From the IMG/VR virus record IMGVR_UViG_2541047692_000008, positions 1 to 54,354 of that record: 54,354 nucleotides of DNA; one strand, 5' to 3'. Within the stretch, counting starts at the first letter, position 1, and every line of letters begins with the position of its first letter. The notes beneath the pieces are model-generated. The model saw only the letters and a program-made list of their open reading frames with translations, was not told where the DNA came from and searched no databases. The DNA comes from a virus (lineage: Duplodnaviria > Heunggongvirae > Uroviricota > Caudoviricetes). Positions 9,900 through 26,093 of the stretch are shown one piece after another. The translations under genes and the position numbers were made by a program.

Positions 9900-10274
9900 G
9901 CCTGGAAAACACCAAAACGTAAACAGAAAACGTTATTTATTATTTAAATATCAATGGCATATAAAATATTTTAAAAAAGTATACAAAATGGATTGACTCG
10001 ATGTTTTACGGGGCGTATATTGCGAGTCAAAGGAAGGGCGCAGGTAACAAAAGCAACTTCCTGGCACTTTAAAAATCAGGCTTAACACCTTGTCAACCGT
10101 GGAGTAACTCCCCGATGGGGGACCGAAAGCGGCACTGATAACAAGGCGCATGGGGTGTTTAAAGCGTTACATCCCCCACGAAACCGCACGCAAGGCGACG
10201 AGTCAGCTTGCTTGGAGTGAGCAAGGTCACGCCGGGAACGGCGATGATTGCGGGATTAGTTGAAAGATGTTAAG

Positions 10275-10313
10275 CCGCTCATTAACAATCTGGTCAGCCG
10301 CTGGAAGTGCGGC
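10275..10313 (+). promoter_or_regulatory. Candidate nut site (boxA-like CGCTCATTAA + boxB-like hairpin)
   Basis: cgctcattaa resembles boxA consensus CGCTCTT(T)A; 11 nt later gccgc-tggaagt-gcggc hairpin with purine-rich loop; about 60-95 nt upstream of the N-like ORF. Confidence 0.45.
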
Positions 10314-10408
10314 AATTAACGAAGATGATTTTTTATTAAGTATCATCAAGGATATACGGAGATCAGATTATGAGCGTTACAATTATATATGGTAAATGTG
10401 ATAGCAAA

Positions 10409-10660
10409 ATGAATGCCAGGGAACGCAGAAGGATAAAAAGAGAAAACGAAAGAAAATCATCACCTGCAATCAATAAAACAGACAATGTGGATAAAGCTAT
10501 TCGATTTGCAAACGAGGAAAGATGCAAACCAAATAGCATTAAAGAACGTCGCAAAGGATCAGTAAAATGGTATACGGAAAATGAAAGCGGCAGCTACTAC
10601 CACGCAACGCAACCACGCCATTTAGGGGAAAAACCCCTGGATAAAGTCCGCTACCATTAA
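10409..10660 (+). CDS. N-like antitermination protein candidate (arginine-rich motif)
   Basis: Track ORF 10370..10660; internal ATG gives N-terminal MNARERRRIKRENERK arginine-rich motif like lambdoid N proteins; small basic protein at start of operon. Confidence 0.45.
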   Translation: MNARERRRIKRENERKSSPAINKTDNVDKAIRFANEERCKPNSIKERRKGSVKWYTENESGSYYHATQPRHLGEKPLDKVRYH

Positions 10661-17646: not shown

Positions 17647-17767
17647 TAATGGCGCTTTTCGCCTTGTTCTGGTGCATCCATTTTGTATACTTCAAGCAAA
17701 CAAAATGCTCTTTAAAAATCCGGCAGCGCTGAAATGCGTAGAAATCACCTGAAAAGGAGAGAGCATT

Positions 17768-18968: not shown

Positions 18969-19147
18969 AAAACGAAGTTAAAGATCTGCAAATAGATATT
19001 CAGCGCGACGAGCGTGATTTAGAGACGGTCCGACAAATCCAGGCTTTCCACATGCGCGAATTACTTGCGCTGAAAGAGTTCGAAAGAAAGCTGGTGCAAT
19101 CCATTTCTGATCGTAAACGGCTGGCGGCGCGTTATGAGGGCAAATAA
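18965..19147 (+). CDS. Hypothetical coiled-coil protein (60 aa)
   Basis: ORF coupled between rusA and Q-like gene. Confidence 0.45.
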   Translation: MKNEVKDLQIDIQRDERDLETVRQIQAFHMRELLALKEFERKLVQSISDRKRLAARYEGK

Positions 19148-19875
19148 TGAATTTAGAATCCATTCTAAAATTCCACTTTCCTAAATCACCGCGATTATCT
19201 GACGAAAGCCGGGGCACGTCCCCGGACGCTCTTAATACGACGGATGCGCTAACCGCTGCGGGTATGGCGCAATCGCGCGTAGAGCTTGGATATGGCGCTT
19301 TTTTAGGGAAGATGGAACTATCACAAGCCGAAAAACATAGGGCCGTAGTTTTGCTTACAGAGCGTTTAAGGGCTATGGCGAAAGATTACGAATACGTGAT
19401 GGAGTTAAACGAGGATCAGCGCAATGGACTTATTATTCTTGTTGCCGTTTTCGCGTTTCGGGATTATTGCCAGAGTGCGGCGACCGAAAAAGTTTGCCCT
19501 AAGTGCGGCGGCCACGGGCATTTACCAAATCCATATTGCAAATACACATCGACAATTTGTTCGCGGTGCAACGGCAAAGGCTACGTTAAAAACCATTGCC
19601 AACGTTGCAAGGGGCGCGGAGAAGTACCGGATAAAGCAGCCAGTGAAGCGGCGGAAATGCCAGTATTCAAAACGTGCCAGCATTGCGGCGGGCGCGGGTA
19701 CTCGCGTTTCCCGGTAGATCTCGTCCGGCAGGCCGTTAACCAGCTTGTTTTCCCGGTAAGCAGATCAACATGGTGGAAGAAATACCGGGTTTTCTATGAA
19801 GACGCCATAGCGGAGCTATTCAAAGAAGAGGCCCGCGCGGAAAGCGAAATTAAACGAGTGACACGGGGTGAATAA
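19147..19875 (+). CDS. Q-like late antitermination protein candidate with four CxxCxGxG zinc motifs
   Basis: 242 aa; N-terminus MNLESILKFHFPKSPRLSDE resembles Qin/82-type Q as recalled; position after ninG-rusA; CPKCGGHG, CSRCNGKG, CQRCKGRG, CQHCGGRG repeats (DnaJ-like zinc finger pattern). Confidence 0.55.
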   Translation: MNLESILKFHFPKSPRLSDESRGTSPDALNTTDALTAAGMAQSRVELGYGAFLGKMELSQAEKHRAVVLLTERLRAMAKDYEYVMELNEDQRNGLIILVAVFAFRDYCQSAATEKVCPKCGGHGHLPNPYCKYTSTICSRCNGKGYVKNHCQRCKGRGEVPDKAASEAAEMPVFKTCQHCGGRGYSRFPVDLVRQAVNQLVFPVSRSTWWKKYRVFYEDAIAELFKEEARAESEIKRVTRGE

Positions 19876-20078
19876 TGGACAAGTTAGAAATAAACGATCA
19901 GTTTGCCGTTATCTTGTTCGAAGATAAAACGGGCGGCGCGTGGTGTAAGAAAGTAACTGGTGCAGAAGCGCGATTGATATTGGGTATGGCAAGCGCATTA
20001 AACGAAGGCGAATTGCCAGCCGTACCTATTGAGCCTGTTCACATTTACGGGAGGAATAGAGAAGATGAAAATAATTAA
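19875..20078 (+). CDS. Hypothetical small protein (67 aa)
   Basis: First ORF of dense small-gene block; ATG overlaps the Q-like gene stop. Confidence 0.45.
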   Translation: MDKLEINDQFAVILFEDKTGGAWCKKVTGAEARLILGMASALNEGELPAVPIEPVHIYGRNREDENN

Positions 20079-20412
20079 TATCGGGTGGTTATATTGCGAA
20101 AACTGCGACGACGACGGCATGGTTGTTAAGACTGAAAAAGGTTGCGGCTTCTTTTTGTATCAAGGCGATAAGTTTGTTTGTCCGCGATGCGGTGGTCATG
20201 GTGAGATAGAAATTATTGAAGATAGTGCTACAGCACCAGAGCCGGAGCGCATTGTTCTTGACGAAAAAATAAAAATTCATCCTGATTTATTGCAGCAAAT
20301 TATCGATCACATATCGGCAGCAGCAATCTATGCAGATAATAATTATCATCGTAAAATGAACGTAAAACGTGTTCTTGAGCAGTATTTCGAGGGTGGTGAT
20401 AATGAAGCCTAA
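20065..20412 (+). CDS. Hypothetical zinc-ribbon protein (115 aa)
   Basis: ATG at 20065 with gggagg RBS; CENC...CPRCGGHGE motif. Confidence 0.5.
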   Translation: MKIINIGWLYCENCDDDGMVVKTEKGCGFFLYQGDKFVCPRCGGHGEIEIIEDSATAPEPERIVLDEKIKIHPDLLQQIIDHISAAAIYADNNYHRKMNVKRVLEQYFEGGDNEA

Positions 20413-20671
20413 ATTAAAAGAACATGAATTCATGGATCTTGTAAACGGAATAACTGATAAGTCCAGGACTTATTCAAATACACAACAATTAAGGGCTGTG
20501 ATAGTTACTGAATTAAGGAAATATATAGACCTAAGAGATCCGGTCGATGTTATGACGATGGACGAGGCCATCAAGCGCCGTTCGGCTGAATGGTCAGTGA
20601 GTAATACCGGATTAACCGGATATATTGAAGGCTATAACGACTGTTTACAGGATCATAGCGATGGCAAGTAA
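20402..20671 (+). CDS. Hypothetical protein (89 aa)
   Basis: ATG at 20402 (MKPKLKEHEF) with gagggtgg RBS. Confidence 0.45.
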   Translation: MKPKLKEHEFMDLVNGITDKSRTYSNTQQLRAVIVTELRKYIDLRDPVDVMTMDEAIKRRSAEWSVSNTGLTGYIEGYNDCLQDHSDGK

Positions 20672-20969
20672 AGACCTGCATTTGAATCTGAAAGGGGAAT
20701 ACTTCCACGCCATCCGGGCGGGAAAGAAGGTGGAAGAATACAGGCTTTACAATGACTATTGGCGTAAACGCCTGGAGGGGCGGGAATATGAACGCCTGAT
20801 CATTAAGCTGGGGTATCCAGCCAGCCACGAAGCGCACCGGATCATAAACCTGCCTTATTTCGGGTACGAAGTAAAAACTATCACGCATCCATTATTCGGC
20901 CCTGATCCTGTTAAGGTATTCGCAATTAAATGTGATGTGAATTGGATGTTAAGGTGGGGTGAGCAATGA
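20661..20969 (+). CDS. Hypothetical protein (102 aa), possible PUA/ASCH-like fold
   Basis: ATG at 20661 (MASKDLHLNLKGEYFHAIRAGKKVEEYR); fold guess is weak. Confidence 0.45.
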   Translation: MASKDLHLNLKGEYFHAIRAGKKVEEYRLYNDYWRKRLEGREYERLIIKLGYPASHEAHRIINLPYFGYEVKTITHPLFGPDPVKVFAIKCDVNWMLRWGEQ

Positions 20970-21181
20970 AAAAAGCTGGCCTGTCAATCAGTCGTGTGTT
21001 GTGCGGCGACGAAAGCGAGATCCGCATAGAAATTAAATTTAGCACGGGTAAAGAGATAATTCTCTATACGACACCTGAAAACCTGACGCTGGCGCTTACT
21101 GGTAAATCTGAAACGCCGTGCGACGTCCGGTTGCGCAATATTGAGATTAAGGAAATAGGAAGGGTGAGAAATGAAAAGTAA
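20966..21181 (+). CDS. Hypothetical protein (71 aa)
   Basis: Operon context. Confidence 0.45.
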   Translation: MKKAGLSISRVLCGDESEIRIEIKFSTGKEIILYTTPENLTLALTGKSETPCDVRLRNIEIKEIGRVRNEK

Positions 21182-21383
21182 CCGTAAACGCCTGGTAAGG
21201 TCATATGACAAAGCGTTAAAGGTTTTTGATGATCTGCGACACAATAAACGCCAGCGCCGCAAATGGGCGCGAATGCTTGTTGGTGAATGGCATAACGAAG
21301 ATTTCTTTCTGGAAGCGCGGCACATGACGCAAGAAGACGCGGACCAATTAGCTTACGATAACGTTTATTATATGATGTGGTGA
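21171..21383 (+). CDS. Hypothetical basic protein (70 aa)
   Basis: Operon context. Confidence 0.45.
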   Translation: MKSNRKRLVRSYDKALKVFDDLRHNKRQRRKWARMLVGEWHNEDFFLEARHMTQEDADQLAYDNVYYMMW

Positions 21384-21387
21384 CAAT

Positions 21388-21753
21388 ATGCAAATAATCC
21401 TTGATTACCTTTGCCACGCTGCAAATACAATTTTTGGCATGTATCAGCAACAATTCCTCAAAGAATGGGACGACATGCTGAATGATATCCTCGATAAAGG
21501 ATTAATAATGGAGGTTGACGAGCTTACAATCAAATTTAATTATGAGGGTGAAATTTATCTAATTTGGGTCGGGAATAGATGGTATTCATACGGTCATATT
21601 TATTCAATTGGCGATAAATACATTAAACGAAGCCAGGAATTCAGACCGCGCTTCCGAACAATGCGCCGCCTGCATGATCTGCATATGAAGTTATTCGAAG
21701 ATCAGGAAGCACGGGAATTATTCAAAATTTACGGGGATAAATCATGGAGCTAA
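21388..21753 (+). CDS. Hypothetical protein (121 aa)
   Basis: Operon context. Confidence 0.45.
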   Translation: MQIILDYLCHAANTIFGMYQQQFLKEWDDMLNDILDKGLIMEVDELTIKFNYEGEIYLIWVGNRWYSYGHIYSIGDKYIKRSQEFRPRFRTMRRLHDLHMKLFEDQEARELFKIYGDKSWS

Positions 21754-21974
21754 AAATCTGGCAGGCTATCGACGTGGTTGATAACGAATTATCTATGTTT
21801 GTCACTGACGGAAAGCGCGTGGTGATCGCCACATGGACGCGCAACCATGATGATATTACTTTTCGTCGCAAGGCTGCGGAGTGGCTTTTCTCTGATGAAG
21901 GCTACACGATGAATATCTCCCAGCTTGCCAGAATGAAGGATGAAAAGCTGGTAGATAGTTACACGACTGCATAG
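21744..21974 (+). CDS. Hypothetical protein (76 aa)
   Basis: Operon context. Confidence 0.45.
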   Translation: MELKIWQAIDVVDNELSMFVTDGKRVVIATWTRNHDDITFRRKAAEWLFSDEGYTMNISQLARMKDEKLVDSYTTA

Positions 21975-21984
21975 TGGGGCAAAT

Positions 21985-22218
21985 ATGCGTATCTATGAAC
22001 ACAAGCGGGATAAAACCCGCTTTTTTGTTCGTGCTGGCGTGGCGTACCAGTATCACGAATGTGGATATATTGAGGTGCTTGCTTACAACCTGGATTTCGA
22101 ACAAGAAAAAGAATGGTTTGACTTTAAGATTTACCGTAAGCGCAAGCCAACGCGCGACGAACGACACGCTATCCGGGACTTTTTAATCAGCATAGACCAC
22201 TGGGAGGCAGACGAATGA
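21985..22218 (+). CDS. Hypothetical protein (77 aa)
   Basis: Operon context. Confidence 0.45.
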   Translation: MRIYEHKRDKTRFFVRAGVAYQYHECGYIEVLAYNLDFEQEKEWFDFKIYRKRKPTRDERHAIRDFLISIDHWEADE

Positions 22219-22502
22219 GAGCGAAGAAAACAGCAGATCAGAAAGCGTTAGTTATCACTACAACTGATGTGTCGTTATTCACGAAGGGTGAAGAAATAGA
22301 TCTTAAATTACTTTTCGGCATGTTTGAGCCACACGAAAAGCCGTGGTTCGTGCATGAAGACAAACAGGGAAATATGCGCGTAGTAGTGCCGGACAAAAAC
22401 AGCGACATATTTTTTGCTATTCCAGACCCGTTACATGACGGTGAATTGCTGGCGGTATTGTTGATCGCTGATGCTGTTACTTATAAAGGGAAAGAAATAT
22501 GA
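22215..22502 (+). CDS. Hypothetical protein (95 aa)
   Basis: Operon context; overlapping stop/start. Confidence 0.45.
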   Translation: MRAKKTADQKALVITTTDVSLFTKGEEIDLKLLFGMFEPHEKPWFVHEDKQGNMRVVVPDKNSDIFFAIPDPLHDGELLAVLLIADAVTYKGKEI

Positions 22503-22726
22503 AAGTTAAATTCTTGCACGATCACGGCTACCCATCATTAAAACGCGTGGTAGGGGAAACGGTAGACGTTGTTCATTCTGATGATGTGACCTGCGTCATT
22601 TTGGGTAAAGACCTTATCGCTCACGGTGCTGATGATTACTACATTAACCCGGCGTGGTCATATACGTTTAGCCTGGGCGACTTCGTAGGCGATAAGGGGC
22701 GCGGCTTGCAAGTAGTCGAGGGTTAA
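22499..22726 (+). CDS. Hypothetical protein (75 aa)
   Basis: Operon context. Confidence 0.45.
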   Translation: MKVKFLHDHGYPSLKRVVGETVDVVHSDDVTCVILGKDLIAHGADDYYINPAWSYTFSLGDFVGDKGRGLQVVEG

Positions 22727-22730
22727 TATC

Positions 22731-22946
22731 ATGGACGTTTACGAAGATTTATACCTTCAAACAAATACCAGCACTTTTTATTTTTTGAAAAACGGCGTCG
22801 TATATCGCAGCGATGACGGGGTAATAATGAAAGAGTGGCTATTTAAACGCAAAGACCTACTTGATGACCTGGTTTTTGCCGGGATATTCCGTAAACGTCC
22901 GGCTAACCTGGAAGAAGAAATGCTGATCGACGAGGTATTAAAATGA
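22731..22946 (+). CDS. Hypothetical protein (71 aa)
   Basis: Operon context. Confidence 0.45.
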   Translation: MDVYEDLYLQTNTSTFYFLKNGVVYRSDDGVIMKEWLFKRKDLLDDLVFAGIFRKRPANLEEEMLIDEVLK

Positions 22947-23194
22947 AAATCAAGGTAAGTTATTTCAGGGCGAAAGATAAGGCCACTGGACGGATGATGG
23001 CTATTCTGGTTAACGAAGCGAATTATATGTTCTTCCTTCAACCGTGGTGCATTGCCGATCTTAATGACGATTATCGCCGCCACGCTGCGCGTAGTGCTGT
23101 AGGCATGAAAGGCTGGCAGCCGCGCGACATGGAAAACTATAGCGAGTGGAAATTGGTGGTAAAATACACGGTCGATTATAAAGGGGTTTTCTGA
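22943..23194 (+). CDS. Hypothetical protein (83 aa)
   Basis: Operon context. Confidence 0.45.
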   Translation: MKIKVSYFRAKDKATGRMMAILVNEANYMFFLQPWCIADLNDDYRRHAARSAVGMKGWQPRDMENYSEWKLVVKYTVDYKGVF

Positions 23195-23418
23195 TGTTTG
23201 TAAAATGTATAAAGTCTCGTTTCCCTAATCTTTTTGTGGTTGATGAGATTTACGACATAGAAACGCTAATAAGCAGAACTAACGATATTCAGTACATTTA
23301 TGATGAAGATGGCGATCCGTGGTTTTTTTATAACGATCTCAATGGTAGCGGATTCGTTGATGGCGTTGGCGGTAATGGTGTGCCAGTTGCGCTATTTATA
23401 AATGCAAATAAGGAATGA
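23194..23418 (+). CDS. Small protein, tandem paralog 1 of 4
   Basis: Shares pattern [KR]C..S....F..G.IY.V....D..YI..D..G..W.[FY] with the next three ORFs. Confidence 0.5.
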   Translation: MFVKCIKSRFPNLFVVDEIYDIETLISRTNDIQYIYDEDGDPWFFYNDLNGSGFVDGVGGNGVPVALFINANKE

Positions 23419-23630
23419 ATATCATGTATGTTAGATGCACTGAATCAAAATCATCATGCTTTGAGGTTGGCGGAATATATACCGTAGCTCACCTGACTGG
23501 TGATGAACTTAACACCCAATACATTAAAGACGACCACGGAGACGCGTGGCGCTATTGGGATTGTTACGCGCGTGGACACGTTGCCAGCCAGTTCAGTACG
23601 GAACCGATCGCGCGTTTTGTTAAGTGGTGA
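23415..23630 (+). CDS. Small protein, tandem paralog 2 of 4
   Basis: MYVRCTESKSSCFEVGGIYTVAHL...QYIKDDHGDAWRYW; alternative ATG at 23424. Confidence 0.5.
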   Translation: MNIMYVRCTESKSSCFEVGGIYTVAHLTGDELNTQYIKDDHGDAWRYWDCYARGHVASQFSTEPIARFVKW

Positions 23631-23639
23631 GGTAGTGTT

Positions 23640-23879
23640 ATGAGACAGAATCAGAGATACCAGTGCACATACTCACGATGCAGCGCGTTTTTTAAGAATG
23701 GCAAGATCTACGAAGTCGGAGCGGCATTGTTTGACGCAAAGGATCAGGAATATATTCACGCCATTACTGACGACCAGGGCCAGTTATGGCGATTTTATAA
23801 GATGGGATGTGGAACTGCGCTTGTTTATGCGCGGGCTTGTGGTGGTGCTTTTGCTGCGTTTTCGTATGTAGGTGCATAA
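23640..23879 (+). CDS. Small protein, tandem paralog 3 of 4
   Basis: YQCTYSRCSAFFKNGKIYEVGAAL...EYIHAITDDQGQLWRFY. Confidence 0.5.
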   Translation: MRQNQRYQCTYSRCSAFFKNGKIYEVGAALFDAKDQEYIHAITDDQGQLWRFYKMGCGTALVYARACGGAFAAFSYVGA

Positions 23880-24099
23880 AATGATTTTAACGTGTAACGA
23901 ATCGGGATTAGGTTGTTTTGAGGAAGGAGCACAGTACACGGCTGAAAAACCGATGGGATTGTCTCCTAAATTTCCGTTTATCGTCGTGACTGACACTTAC
24001 GGTCACTTATGGTATGCAGGGCCGCTAGGCGGTATTGGTCGTTATGTTGTCCGTAGTTCGGATGGGGCGATGAAGGTTACTTTTACGGAAGAAACGTAA
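23872..24099 (+). CDS. Small protein, tandem paralog 4 of 4
   Basis: MILTCNESGLGCFEEGAQYTAEK...FIVVTDTYGHLWYAG; alternative ATG at 23881. Confidence 0.5.
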   Translation: MHKMILTCNESGLGCFEEGAQYTAEKPMGLSPKFPFIVVTDTYGHLWYAGPLGGIGRYVVRSSDGAMKVTFTEET

Positions 24100-24100
24100 A

Positions 24101-24116
24101 TGTGATCTGTATCACA
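24101..24116. promoter_or_regulatory. TGTGA-N6-TCACA palindrome with GATC (CRP consensus-like)
   Basis: tgtgatctgtatcaca; followed by inverted tacgaaatggca / tgccattttgtta pair (24119-24160). Confidence 0.45.
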
Positions 24117-24197
24117 AGGTTTACGAAATGGCATTGTTTCGACAGTGCCATTTTGTTATAAAGAAGCTGAAGAGAGAACGATGCGGAGGGTAGAAAA

Positions 24198-24476
24198 ATG
24201 AAACGCTGGATTAACAAAGAAGTCGAATCTCGCTTAAACGCATTTTGGGAGATGGTGGAGAAAGAAGACCCAGCACACGCTGCAAGCCCTTACCTGAACA
24301 ACATCGAATATCACTACATTGCAGCAAACAACGCGGAGTTCGAAGAAGAAGGTGGAGCCGACAAGTTCGCACAAAGCAACGCATTCAACAACGCAAACGA
24401 AATGATGATGGCAGTCATCGAACAGGCAGAGGAAGACTACGAATGCAAATCACTTGAATTTGCACGCATGGCATAA
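24198..24476 (+). CDS. Hypothetical acidic protein (92 aa)
   Basis: ggaggg RBS; follows an intergenic regulatory region. Confidence 0.5.
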   Translation: MKRWINKEVESRLNAFWEMVEKEDPAHAASPYLNNIEYHYIAANNAEFEEEGGADKFAQSNAFNNANEMMMAVIEQAEEDYECKSLEFARMA

Positions 24477-24485
24477 GGGGGAACC

Positions 24486-24623
24486 ATGAACGCTAACGCT
24501 AAATATCCGGCCTGGGTTTTCGAACTATACGCCCGCTACTTTGAAGTATTGGCACCAGGTGAAGAAGCATTAAGCATTGACGAATACGCGGAGTGCTTAG
24601 GATTTAGAGGAGGAGAAGAATAA
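24486..24623 (+). CDS. Small hypothetical protein (45 aa)
   Basis: Hand-found; aaggggga RBS; fills gap between flanking ORFs. Confidence 0.35.
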   Translation: MNANAKYPAWVFELYARYFEVLAPGEEALSIDEYAECLGFRGGEE

Positions 24624-24635
24624 ACACGGGGCAGA

Positions 24636-24917
24636 ATGGCCCCATCAAACGGAGTAGAAATTATGGTTGTGATCAGACTATGGCGCGGAGTTAGTAGGCT
24701 TGATGGCACATACAGCCGTGTAATTGAGGTTGTTAACAATAGTCGGTTTTATGAACTGGAATACAGCGAAAAAAGGGAGAATGAATATTTGAGCGAATCG
24801 ACCCCTATGTGGTGCAAAGTGGCTGGCCTTTCTTCACTTATGCGTTGCGGGTTTTATACAGATTATAACACGCTAACAGATGCCGAACTGGTGGCAACTC
24901 TTTACGAAGGAGAATAA
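24636..24917 (+). CDS. Hypothetical protein (93 aa)
   Basis: Operon context; alternative ATG at 24663. Confidence 0.45.
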   Translation: MAPSNGVEIMVVIRLWRGVSRLDGTYSRVIEVVNNSRFYELEYSEKRENEYLSESTPMWCKVAGLSSLMRCGFYTDYNTLTDAELVATLYEGE

Positions 24918-24920
24918 ACA

Positions 24921-25244
24921 ATGACTAAATTTATCAGCGTTAAAGTTTTCCGTGGTACTTTACCGAACGAAGAAAGATTGGGGGAATTCGCCGGGCAACC
25001 TGGCGCATGTTTCCGTGTAGCCACTGAAGACGATGCGCATGTTAAATGCTTCCACGTATCGGAACCGCCTTTTAATGCAGACCATCTTGAAGACCCGGAT
25101 AGAATTAAAAGCCTAGTTTTTGCCTATCTGATGTTCCAGGGTATCGCTAATATGGAAGTGGAATTGCTTGGCGCTGAACTGGCGGCAGAATACAAAATCA
25201 CTAAAGCAGAAAGTGGAGGGTCGGAAATTGAGCGCATCAAATAA
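24921..25244 (+). CDS. Hypothetical protein (107 aa)
   Basis: Operon context. Confidence 0.45.
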   Translation: MTKFISVKVFRGTLPNEERLGEFAGQPGACFRVATEDDAHVKCFHVSEPPFNADHLEDPDRIKSLVFAYLMFQGIANMEVELLGAELAAEYKITKAESGGSEIERIK

Positions 25245-25479
25245 ACCTTACAAAATCCGGTGTAAAGGCGAATACCCTGGGTTTACGATTGGTTGCGAAT
25301 ACCTGGGCCACATTGGGTACGGCCCTTTCGGTGAATTAGGGATGAATACGCTGGACGACGACGGCGACAGCCGGACGCTCGATCTTGATACGGATGACTT
25401 CGAATATATCCCTCCAGTTACTTACCGTGCCGTAGATGATTTCCTGGCTGAACAAGAAGATGATGAAGAGGATGATTAA
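25228..25479 (+). CDS. Hypothetical protein with strongly acidic C-terminus (about 83 aa, TTG start)
   Basis: ggaggg RBS 7 nt before TTG 25228; track ORF begins at ATG 25168 inside the previous gene; C-terminus ...DDDGDSRTLDLDTDDFEY...EQEDDEEDD. Confidence 0.4.
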   Translation: MSASNKPYKIRCKGEYPGFTIGCEYLGHIGYGPFGELGMNTLDDDGDSRTLDLDTDDFEYIPPVTYRAVDDFLAEQEDDEEDD

Positions 25480-25481
25480 CT

Positions 25482-25622
25482 ATGGATGACGAATACGTTA
25501 ACAATTTTATTGTTATGTTTCTTAGTGAAAATTGGCGCATGTTTGAACATTATTGTTTTGAGCGCGGGGAAAATGCTGAAGAAATATATCAATATTTAGG
25601 CGGGGAGAAAGAGGATGATTGA
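25482..25622 (+). CDS. Small hypothetical protein (46 aa)
   Basis: Hand-found; gaggatga RBS. Confidence 0.35.
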   Translation: MDDEYVNNFIVMFLSENWRMFEHYCFERGENAEEIYQYLGGEKEDD

Positions 25623-25809
25623 ATGTCTTATCATTGCTGTGTTTCTCCTTTATATTGCTGGCGCTATCCTGATGTCTTGTTTTATCAAATCTAATGATCT
25701 CGATCGTGGTGGTCTTGAGATTCCTTTCTGGCCTGTAGCGGTGTTTATTGCTCTCGTAGATGCCGCGCGCGCGCAGATCAAAAGGGTTATTAAGGAGCGC
25801 AAGAAATGA
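25615..25809 (+). CDS. Small membrane protein (64 aa)
   Basis: Two hydrophobic helices (IIAVFLLYIAGAILMSCFI; FWPVAVFIALV). Confidence 0.45.
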   Translation: MIECLIIAVFLLYIAGAILMSCFIKSNDLDRGGLEIPFWPVAVFIALVDAARAQIKRVIKERKK

Positions 25810-25988
25810 TTGAAGATGGTATATACGCCGTAACACTAATCGACAAGATGTTTTATCGCATAGAGGGTGGTGATATTCGCGTTTGCGTTAGCGATGGTGA
25901 GTGGGTAGCGCCAATCATCAAGACGACGCGAGAAACAATTAAAATCTGGCTTGATAATGGCGATTTGGTGAAAGTTAGTGATTTGTAG
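25806..25988 (+). CDS. Hypothetical protein (60 aa)
   Basis: Last ORF of the block before the terminator and holin. Confidence 0.45.
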   Translation: MIEDGIYAVTLIDKMFYRIEGGDIRVCVSDGEWVAPIIKTTRETIKIWLDNGDLVKVSDL

Positions 25989-26051
25989 CCATAATCGCGC
26001 ATAAAAAACAAATAGATTAAAATATTTCCTAACAATGCGAAATTGTAATTA

Positions 26052-26075
26052 CCCGGCCACGAGCCGGGTTTTTGC
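26052..26075 (+). terminator. Rho-independent terminator upstream of holin (candidate tR')
   Basis: cccggc-cacga-gccggg followed by tttttgctttgtt; about 20 nt before the holin RBS. Confidence 0.6.
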
Positions 26076-26093
26076 TTTGTTGGAGGAAAATCT

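Follow-up and report, generated by a model that had tools for sequence, protein, structure and literature searches.

The best-described relative of the system discussed here is the late-gene antiterminator Q of bacteriophage lambda (PF03589; structures 4MO1 and 7UBJ-7UBN). In lambda Q, residues 1-44 refold into an RNA-exit 'nozzle', residues 61-113 and 153-207 form a helix-turn-helix 'body', and residues 114-152 make up a zinc-ribbon 'arm' that contacts positions 11-13 of the Q-binding element (QBE) as well as sigma region 4; the QBE itself occupies the spacer between the -35 and -10 hexamers (PMC9388147). In the lambda genome record the target of Q, the late promoter PR', reads TTGACT-N17-TAAATT-TGACTC-AACGATGGG and starts 43 bp after the Q stop codon, with AACGAT as the sigma70-dependent pause element. 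Here we analyse a Q-like gene and its probable target in a 54,354-nucleotide stretch of DNA from a virus of the Caudoviricetes (IMG/VR record IMGVR_UViG_2541047692_000008, positions 1 to 54,354), which we call the window. The reading that we favour, with a probability of roughly 0.78, is that a lambda-type Q protein with an enlarged zinc arm acts at a cassette lying next to the holin gene, and that a mosaic block of accessory genes stands between the two.

The Q protein and its zinc arm

The product of the Q-like gene can be aligned with lambda Q from end to end. BLASTP against lambda Q (NC_001416) finds 33% identity (E 6e-45); the one gap, of 33 residues, stands opposite residues 117-149, and in both phmmer and BLASTP alignments residues 1-114 pair with lambda 1-114 and residues 150-240 with lambda 117-207. 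Profile and sequence searches agree: PF03589 (Antiterm) scores 104 bits, the gathering threshold being 26.7; phrog_127 ('anti-termination protein Q-like', profile length 253) matches the whole protein (E 3e-77); and phmmer against PDB sequences finds 7ubm_Q, the Q-lambda chain of 7UBM/7UBN (E 8e-37). An AlphaFold2 model of the full protein, made from an input alignment of 56 sequences, reached a mean predicted local distance difference test score (pLDDT) of 85. When this model was compared with the PDB by Foldseek, the best match was 7UBN_Q (E 8e-15, template-modelling (TM) score 0.77); the top eight were all Q-lambda, and no DnaJ structure was among the significant matches. Two residues, G39 and T239 (lambda T206), are invariant in the alignments, and I6, L58 and I235 are conservative or identical; lambda mutants at the equivalent positions lose antitermination (PMC9388147). 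An N-terminal nozzle segment, a four-helix body with a helix-turn-helix, and a CxxCxGxG zinc-ribbon arm are common to the two proteins. As judged from sequence and predicted structure, we conclude that the gene encodes a late-gene antiterminator, a full-length relative of lambda Q, and not a chaperone. Its full-length collinearity with lambda Q and its Q-lambda fold contradict the suggestion, made in a preliminary description of this DNA, that the protein might not be the late antiterminator.

Part of what had raised that doubt was the presence of four CxxCxGxG motifs, described as evenly spaced and as foreign to lambda Q. All four were recovered by a motif scan. Two or more such motifs appeared in none of 200,000 shuffles of the 242-residue protein, and a six-frame translation of the whole window contains only five occurrences, four of them in Q and one in the open reading frame (ORF) at 20065-20412. 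The spacings between successive motifs are 21, 13 and 26 residues and are thus not even. Nor is the motif foreign to lambda Q, which has two copies (C118 CRDCHGTG and C144 CGRCKGVG) in its zinc ribbon.

Residues C151/C154/C177/C180 of the window protein align with lambda C118/C121/C144/C147, a predicted zinc site; the 26-residue step from motif 3 to motif 4 equals that from C118 to C144 in lambda; and the intervening segment aligns as well. An insertion of 33-35 residues adds a second CxxCxGxG pair (motifs 1 and 2, at C117 and C138), making the arm longer than that of lambda Q by this amount and giving it a second Cys4 set. Sequence and model together therefore describe a protein of lambda Q architecture in which the arm is enlarged by an extra pair of zinc knuckles. 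Because the segment between knuckles 3 and 4 aligns with its lambda counterpart, we infer that these two motifs are the ancestral ribbon and that motifs 1 and 2 are the added one.

This long-arm form is the common type within phrog_127. Four CxxC pairs are present in almost all of 55 homologues of 240-282 residues, and among them the distance from motif 2 to motif 3 is always 13 residues and that from motif 3 to motif 4 always 26; the distance from motif 1 to motif 2 runs from 19 to 63. The Q proteins of ST104 (gp23), ES18 (gp73), SEN22, Erwinia phage Eho49 and Escherichia phage Tritos (PHROG 127) share the arm with four cysteine pairs and the constant 13- and 26-residue spacings, and are 35-38% identical to the window protein over the full length. 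To our knowledge, the second CxxCxGxG pair that most enterobacterial Q-lambda homologues carry has never been studied structurally, and a literature search linking antitermination to CXXCXGXG found nothing relevant.

Four CxxCxGxG knuckles also characterize the cysteine-rich (CR) domain of DnaJ/Hsp40 (PF00684; 1EXK), and the preliminary description had read them here as the DnaJ signature. There is indeed a weak profile similarity: DnaJ_CXXCXGXG (PF00684) scores 31.3 bits (E 2.5e-7), below its threshold of 32.7, and public precomputed tables list PF00684 beside PF03589 for many Q homologues. We therefore compared structures at the level of the arm. An arm-only model (residues 108-190, pLDDT 75) fits the Q-lambda arm over 41 columns at a root-mean-square deviation (rmsd) of 1.1-2.9 A, whereas it could not be superposed on the DnaJ CR domains 1EXK and 2CTT (TM 0.27-0.31, rmsd 9.0-9.6 A). 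In addition, Pfam and NCBIfam profile searches of the Q protein matched neither a J domain nor the C-terminal, substrate-binding domain of DnaJ. Because the arm model is unlike the DnaJ CR domain, the PF00684 score is below threshold and a J domain is lacking, we dropped the DnaJ domain reading. What the window protein shares with DnaJ, on sequence and model, is a zinc-knuckle motif and not a domain. The motif spacing and the alignment with lambda, along with the arm-only model and a fold search, favour two tandem zinc ribbons (motifs 1+2 and 3+4) as the probable cysteine pairing over a DnaJ-like nested arrangement (1+4 and 2+3).

The fifth motif of the window belongs to the ORF at 20065-20412, which begins 190 bp after Q and carries CENC and CPRCGGHG (20179-20202), the latter nearly identical to CPKCGGHG, motif 1 of Q. 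This ORF matches phrog_4446, has a weak PF00684 match (19 bits), and may encode a zinc ribbon that stands alone and is related to the arm of Q.

The cassette ahead of the holin

The window Q is 85-95% identical to the Q proteins of the Escherichia phages MagusPhagus, mEp010, mEp013, mEp515, mEp021, mEp554 and mEp044. The available part of PMC11893012 describes these phages as the mEpimmI group, Nus-dependent non-lambdoid gut coliphages that need N-like and Q-like proteins. In shared parts, the DNA from Q to the holin is 85-88% identical to that of the group, and the window has a length typical of it (54,354 bp as against 53-55 kb). The genes run in the same order, NinG-RusA-small ORF-Q-variable block-terminator-holin, and the element that precedes the holin is shared. 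On this sequence evidence we place the window in the published mEpimmI group as a new member; it is not identical to any deposited phage, the best Q-to-holin match being 88% identity over 72% of the query.

The pre-holin element has the -10, pause-like and terminator parts of a Q-dependent cassette. It reads TAAAAT, ATTTCCT, AACAATGCG, about 12 nt, a 7-bp G+C hairpin and a T-tract (Table 1). The putative pause element is itself -10-like and would lie at about +1 to +7, given a transcription start predicted near 26031. The terminator scan found a 7-bp G+C-rich stem (26051-26069) followed by TTTTTGCTTTG, and the predicted folding energy of the 52-nt terminator RNA is -20.9 kcal/mol (z = -4.6). 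In the GenBank record of mEp021 the homologous site bears the annotation TERM_5, and t5 is listed among experimentally demonstrated terminators in the accessible part of PMC11893012; presuming that t5 follows the TERM_5 numbering, the window terminator is at the site of TERM_5/t5 of mEp021. The candidate Q-binding site, AAACAAATAGAT (26005-26016), would occupy the promoter spacer.

When the 280 bp before the holin were aligned in seven phages, unrelated or divergent upstream sequence switched abruptly to an almost invariant stretch of about 95 bp, AAAACAAAyAGATTAAAATATTnCCTAACAATGCGAAAyTGTAAyTACCCGGCC...GCCGGGTTTTTGCTTTGTTGGAGG. The core GATTAAAATAyTnnCTAACAATGCGAAA, with the terminator, was found in 43 IMG/VR contigs by exact-pattern search and in 7 isolated phages. 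In each of these 50 genomes, 78-89 bp separate it from the start of the holin downstream and 1.9-6.7 kb from Q upstream. Eighteen genomes had been retrieved by their Q protein only, and for that reason form a set unbiased for the element; in these the core is invariant except for one base, and it is kept even with a holin that is only 57% identical and with differing upstream genes. The stem of the terminator is constant among relatives and its loop varies. A strict signature (TA...T, 6-7 nt, AAC[AG]AT, G[CG]G) occurs once in the 54-kb window, at 26018. Nothing in Rfam reached its gathering threshold anywhere in the window, and at 25900-26150 there was sub-threshold noise and nothing more. Covariation between Q subtype and upstream sequence type was sought among the relatives and was not found.

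These results bear on the regulatory sites that the preliminary description had placed near 25990-26075, just upstream of the holin and far from Q. The general location holds, since 78-89 bp lie between the conserved element and the start of the holin, and 6.1 kb between it and the Q stop codon. The terminator was correctly seen as a sequence feature; the promoter-like part exists too, and is better placed at the -10 hexamer of Table 1 than at 25990. The sole promoter that a consensus scan called in this region, GTGAAA-16-CATAAT (25968-25995), was rejected: its CATAAT is replaced by CGTATT in most relatives.

The layout is that of lambda, with a -10 hexamer, 6-7 nt, an AAC(G/A)AT-G(G/C)G pause element and an intrinsic terminator ahead of the holin. 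It differs in three respects. From the Q stop codon to the cassette it is 6.1 kb in the window and 43 bp in lambda; the terminator comes about 20 nt after the pause element, as opposed to about 190 nt; and the -35 is poor and the TTGACT-like element that lambda has between -10 and pause is without a counterpart. Cassettes of this layout also occur in other long-arm Q phages. Next to Q, and in each case followed by an intrinsic terminator, we find TATCAT-AACCC-TAACAGT in ST104, TAATAT-CGTTTC-TAACAGT in ES18 and SEN22, AAATAT-CGTTC-TAACGATGGG in Proteus phage V3, TAAGAT-TTTCTC-AACGATGGG in Tritos and TATAGT-CCTA-TAACACT in Eho49. Related long-arm-Q cassettes have TAACAGT, TAACGATGGG or TAACACT at 5-7 nt after the -10, the first two being very similar to the pause element of the window. 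Lambda PR', the window and the long-arm-Q cassettes thus share one grammar: -10, 5-7 nt, (T)AAC(A/G)NT and a terminator.

Table 1. Features of the Q-to-lysis region of the window
Feature	Position	Strand	Details and basis
Q-lambda-family late antiterminator, long-arm form	19147..19875	+	242 aa; PF03589, phrog_127, PDB match, AlphaFold2 model
Enlarged 'Q arm' (about residues 114-185), four CxxCxGxG zinc knuckles	19486..19701	+	Lambda alignment, arm-only model
Motif 1, C117 CPKCGGHG	19495-19518	+	Motif scan
Motif 2, C138 CSRCNGKG	19558-19581	+	Motif scan
Motif 3, C151 CQRCKGRG	19597-19620	+	Motif scan
Motif 4, C177 CQHCGGRG	19675-19698	+	Motif scan
Variable accessory block, about 25 small tightly packed ORFs	19875..25988	+	ORF map, PHROG matches
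Conserved promoter-spacer segment AAAACAAATAGAT, candidate Q-binding element	26004..26017	+	Group-wide conservation starts here; the adjoining -35 position, 5' of it, varies
Predicted -10 hexamer TAAAAT of late promoter (PR' equivalent)	26018..26023	+	Unchanged among about 50 relatives; placed relative to the pause element as in lambda, ES18, ST104, Tritos, Proteus V3 and Eho49
Predicted sigma70-dependent pause element TAACAATGCG	26030..26039	+	Resembles lambda AACGATGGG
Intrinsic terminator (tR' equivalent)	26051..26078	+	Terminator scan, RNA fold; 15 nt before holin ATG
Holin	26094-26294	+	Pfam Phage_holin_2_3
Lysozyme	~26293-26787	+	Pfam Phage_lysozyme
Rz-like spanin	26775-27245	+	Pfam Phage_lysis

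Taken together, these data suggest the following model. Early rightward transcription, made termination-resistant by Gp17 at nut sites, would cross NinG, RusA and Q and continue through a translationally coupled block of small genes. Q would then act in trans, binding the spacer of the late promoter and capturing a sigma70-paused polymerase at TAACAAT (26030-26036), with the pause expected at about +16/+17, or about position 26046. With NusA, Q would form the exit-channel nozzle that renders the polymerase termination-resistant, and the terminator hairpin, which starts at about +21, would be blocked by this nozzle. The modified polymerase would pass the terminator into holin, endolysin and spanin, and from there into the virion genes. 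The lysis cassette (26094..27245) contains the first late genes.

The accessory block between Q and its target

The Q stop codon at 19875 and the holin ATG at 26094 are 6.2 kb apart, which bears out the displacement of about 6 kb from the lysis genes that had first been remarked on. To account for it, the preliminary description had proposed as one possibility that the block of small ORFs is a large insertion between Q and its target. Of 69 further long-arm-Q loci of non-mEp type from IMG/VR, 65 were checked with an automated, RNAfold-based signature and by eye. All 65 have a cassette within about 100 bp of the Q stop codon (46 by the automated signature, and all 19 inspected by eye). Because the same cassette adjoins Q in these 65 loci, we regard the insertion as the correct alternative. 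In long-arm-Q phages such as ST104 and Tritos the lysis genes are reached within 0.4-0.8 kb, whereas 1.9-6.7 kb intervene in the mEpimmI phages. In the 11 mEp-type loci, no promoter/pause/terminator signature was found within 500 bp after Q, and the sequence directly 3' of Q is not conserved in mEp021 or mEp044. As far as can be read from the genome sequences, an accessory block separates Q from its target throughout the mEpimmI group. PMC11893012, in the part available, covers the N-like system and mentions the Q-like protein, and there does not discuss the late promoter or the separation of Q from its target. The layout is unusual; the mechanism is not new.

Since the Q stop codon and the ATG of the first ORF in the block overlap, and most of the ORFs show stop/start coupling, the block is probably co-transcribed with Q in the early rightward operon (pR, Gp17/N-dependent). 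Nearly all of the ORFs have a full-length match to a PHROG family of unknown function and are for this reason taken to be real genes; there were no informative Pfam matches among them. Among about 50 relatives the length of the block ranges from 1.9 kb (mEp021 and mEp515) to 6.7 kb, and that of the window is among the longest.

Several details of the block deserve mention. At 23194-24099, four consecutive small ORFs (74, 71, 79 and 75 residues) are paralogous, three of them matching phrog_31142, which points to a tandem gene family. A terminator-like hairpin, AAGCGGG-ATAAAA-CCCGCTT followed by TTTTTGTT, lies at 22003-22032 inside ORF 21985-22218; terminator T9 of mEp554 is predicted at an apparently corresponding, unaligned place. 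If this terminator is functional, transcription of the full block would need an antiterminated polymerase. Further on, a phrog_25234 match covers residues 21-103 of a TTG-started ORF (25168-25479), which shares about 17-77 nt, read in a different frame, with the end of ORF 24921-25244; MagusPhagus has an annotation gap at the corresponding place.

The block also contains a conserved intergenic island at 24099-24197. It carries perfect CRP half-sites, TGTGA-N6-TCACA (24101-24116), and an extended -10, TGtTATAAA (24154-24162), with -35 TTGTTT; the predicted start is about 61 bp downstream of the centre of the CRP half-sites, and a hairpin, AAATGGCA...TGCCATTT, overlaps the extended -10 promoter. 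Of 50 relatives only about 15 have the island, and in seven isolated phages a different hairpin replaces it. It is a possible host-regulated 'moron' promoter of ORFs 24198-25988. We also considered it as a second Q cassette (extended -10 TGtTATAAA plus AACGATGCG) and rejected this, both because the -10 and AAC are 14 nt apart instead of 5-7 and because of its limited distribution.

As for the wider setting, the N-like protein Gp17 is encoded at 10370-10660 and is 93% identical to that of mEp021. A nut-like site at 10270-10320, upstream of gp17, consists of a boxA-like CGCTCATTAACAA followed by the hairpin GCCGC-TGGAAGT-GCGGC. Another, at 17700-17745, comes after the cytosine methyltransferase gene; it has TGCTCTTTAAAAA and then a small hairpin with a GAAA loop, and lies just downstream of a terminator-like hairpin (GGCGCTTTTCGCC then TTGTT). 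No tRNA genes or Rfam families were found in the window. A prophage of E. coli MS 21-1 (NZ_CP146670.1, 2517330-2518058) and IMG/VR contig 3300045988_057488 each contain a gene 100% identical to Q, and the same Q, annotated 'antitermination protein', is present in 35 of 5,426 complete E. coli genomes.

Weighing the readings

Where Q loads could be read in other ways. One arrangement, which we consider quite improbable, would have PR' or the Q-loading site directly after or within Q, the block in the Q-dependent late transcript, and the pre-holin hairpin as one of several terminators that the modified polymerase ignores. It agrees with how the canonical Q cassette is defined, with PR' coming straight after the Q gene (PMC9388147). 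The position of the cassette in 65 of 69 other long-arm-Q loci also counts for it. So does the organization of Stx phages, which carry cargo genes between Q/PR' and the lysis genes. Against it, the start of the next ORF overlaps the Q stop codon and leaves no intergenic space, the cassette signature is absent after Q in all 11 mEp-type loci, and the sequence following Q is not conserved whereas the pre-holin element is invariant in relatives. A more radical departure would make the protein a DnaJ-like zinc-finger chaperone, or some other non-regulatory protein, and give the late switch to a different activator. The four motifs, the near-threshold DnaJ_CXXCXGXG score, weak NCBIfam DnaJ matches and a JGI record that calls one homologue a 'DnaJ-class molecular chaperone' could be cited for this, but it is barely credible in view of the sub-threshold score, the missing J domain, the misfit of the arm-only model to DnaJ CR domains and the full-length homology and structural similarity to lambda Q; moreover, no other late regulator is annotated in the six annotated relatives.

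As to the pre-holin element, several points tell against its being the autonomous late promoter that we propose. At the -35 position the window and about one relative in four have TCGCGC, and the rest have TTGTAG or TTGTGG at 17 bp; the -10 has no TG extension; because of these two features the strength of the promoter is uncertain. The consensus promoter scan did not call it, and the lambda-like TTGACT between the -10 and the pause element is not there. The Q-binding site was guessed from conservation alone, some of the conservation may be due to hitch-hiking with the holin module, itself highly conserved, and the action of Q at 26018-26078 is deduced from sequence. With its poor -35 and neither an extended -10 nor a TTGACT-like element, the site may be a weak promoter, or Q may load on polymerases reading in from the early operon. 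Indeed, since the site has no recognisable -35 and stands at the very end of a long early operon, an autonomous PR' can be doubted altogether. In the version of this idea that goes furthest, the element would be a promoter-independent Q-loading site: sigma70 polymerases arriving from the early operon would pause at TAAAAT/TAACAAT, Q would load, perhaps by way of its extra zinc module, and the early transcript would become the late one. We think this very unlikely. A weaker version holds that the second zinc ribbon might alter the geometry of Q toward its binding site or sigma region 4, relative to lambda Q. It is also unlikely that the element is no promoter at all and serves as a nut-like RNA site for Gp17, or as a terminator with its context, any action of Q being on read-through complexes. 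The lack of a usable -35 in the window-type element speaks for this, as do a possible small hairpin, ACAAU-GCGAA-AUUGU, whose purine-rich loop is reminiscent of boxB, and the N-like system with three nut sites that the group possesses, according to the available part of PMC11893012. However, the boxA core GCTCTT, present at nutR1 and nutR2 of the window, is absent from the element; a T-to-C change breaks the small hairpin, uncompensated, in most relatives; the element matches nothing in Rfam; and none of the three nut sites published in that part of PMC11893012 falls there. We therefore rejected a boxA/boxB identity for it. The DNA pattern instead closely fits the sigma-dependent pause cassettes of Q-lambda relatives, and a lambda-type Q acting at the holin-proximal cassette remains our preferred explanation.

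Overall, this analysis settles an annotation: the gene encodes a late antiterminator, not a chaperone, despite the 'DnaJ-class' names that databases give to homologues, and CxxCxGxG knuckles are native to the Q-lambda arm. It also indicates that an entire, prevalent group of gut coliphages lacks the side-by-side order of Q and PR' known from textbooks. In these phages the two are kept apart by some 8-28 small genes without known function, a mosaic of 2-7 kb that is apparently expressed with Q in the early operon. We see in this a useful annotation and a modest organisational curiosity, and no new kind of system. For the mEpimmI phages it provides a concrete candidate site for the late switch, at 26004-26078 in the window and 24250-24320 in mEp021.

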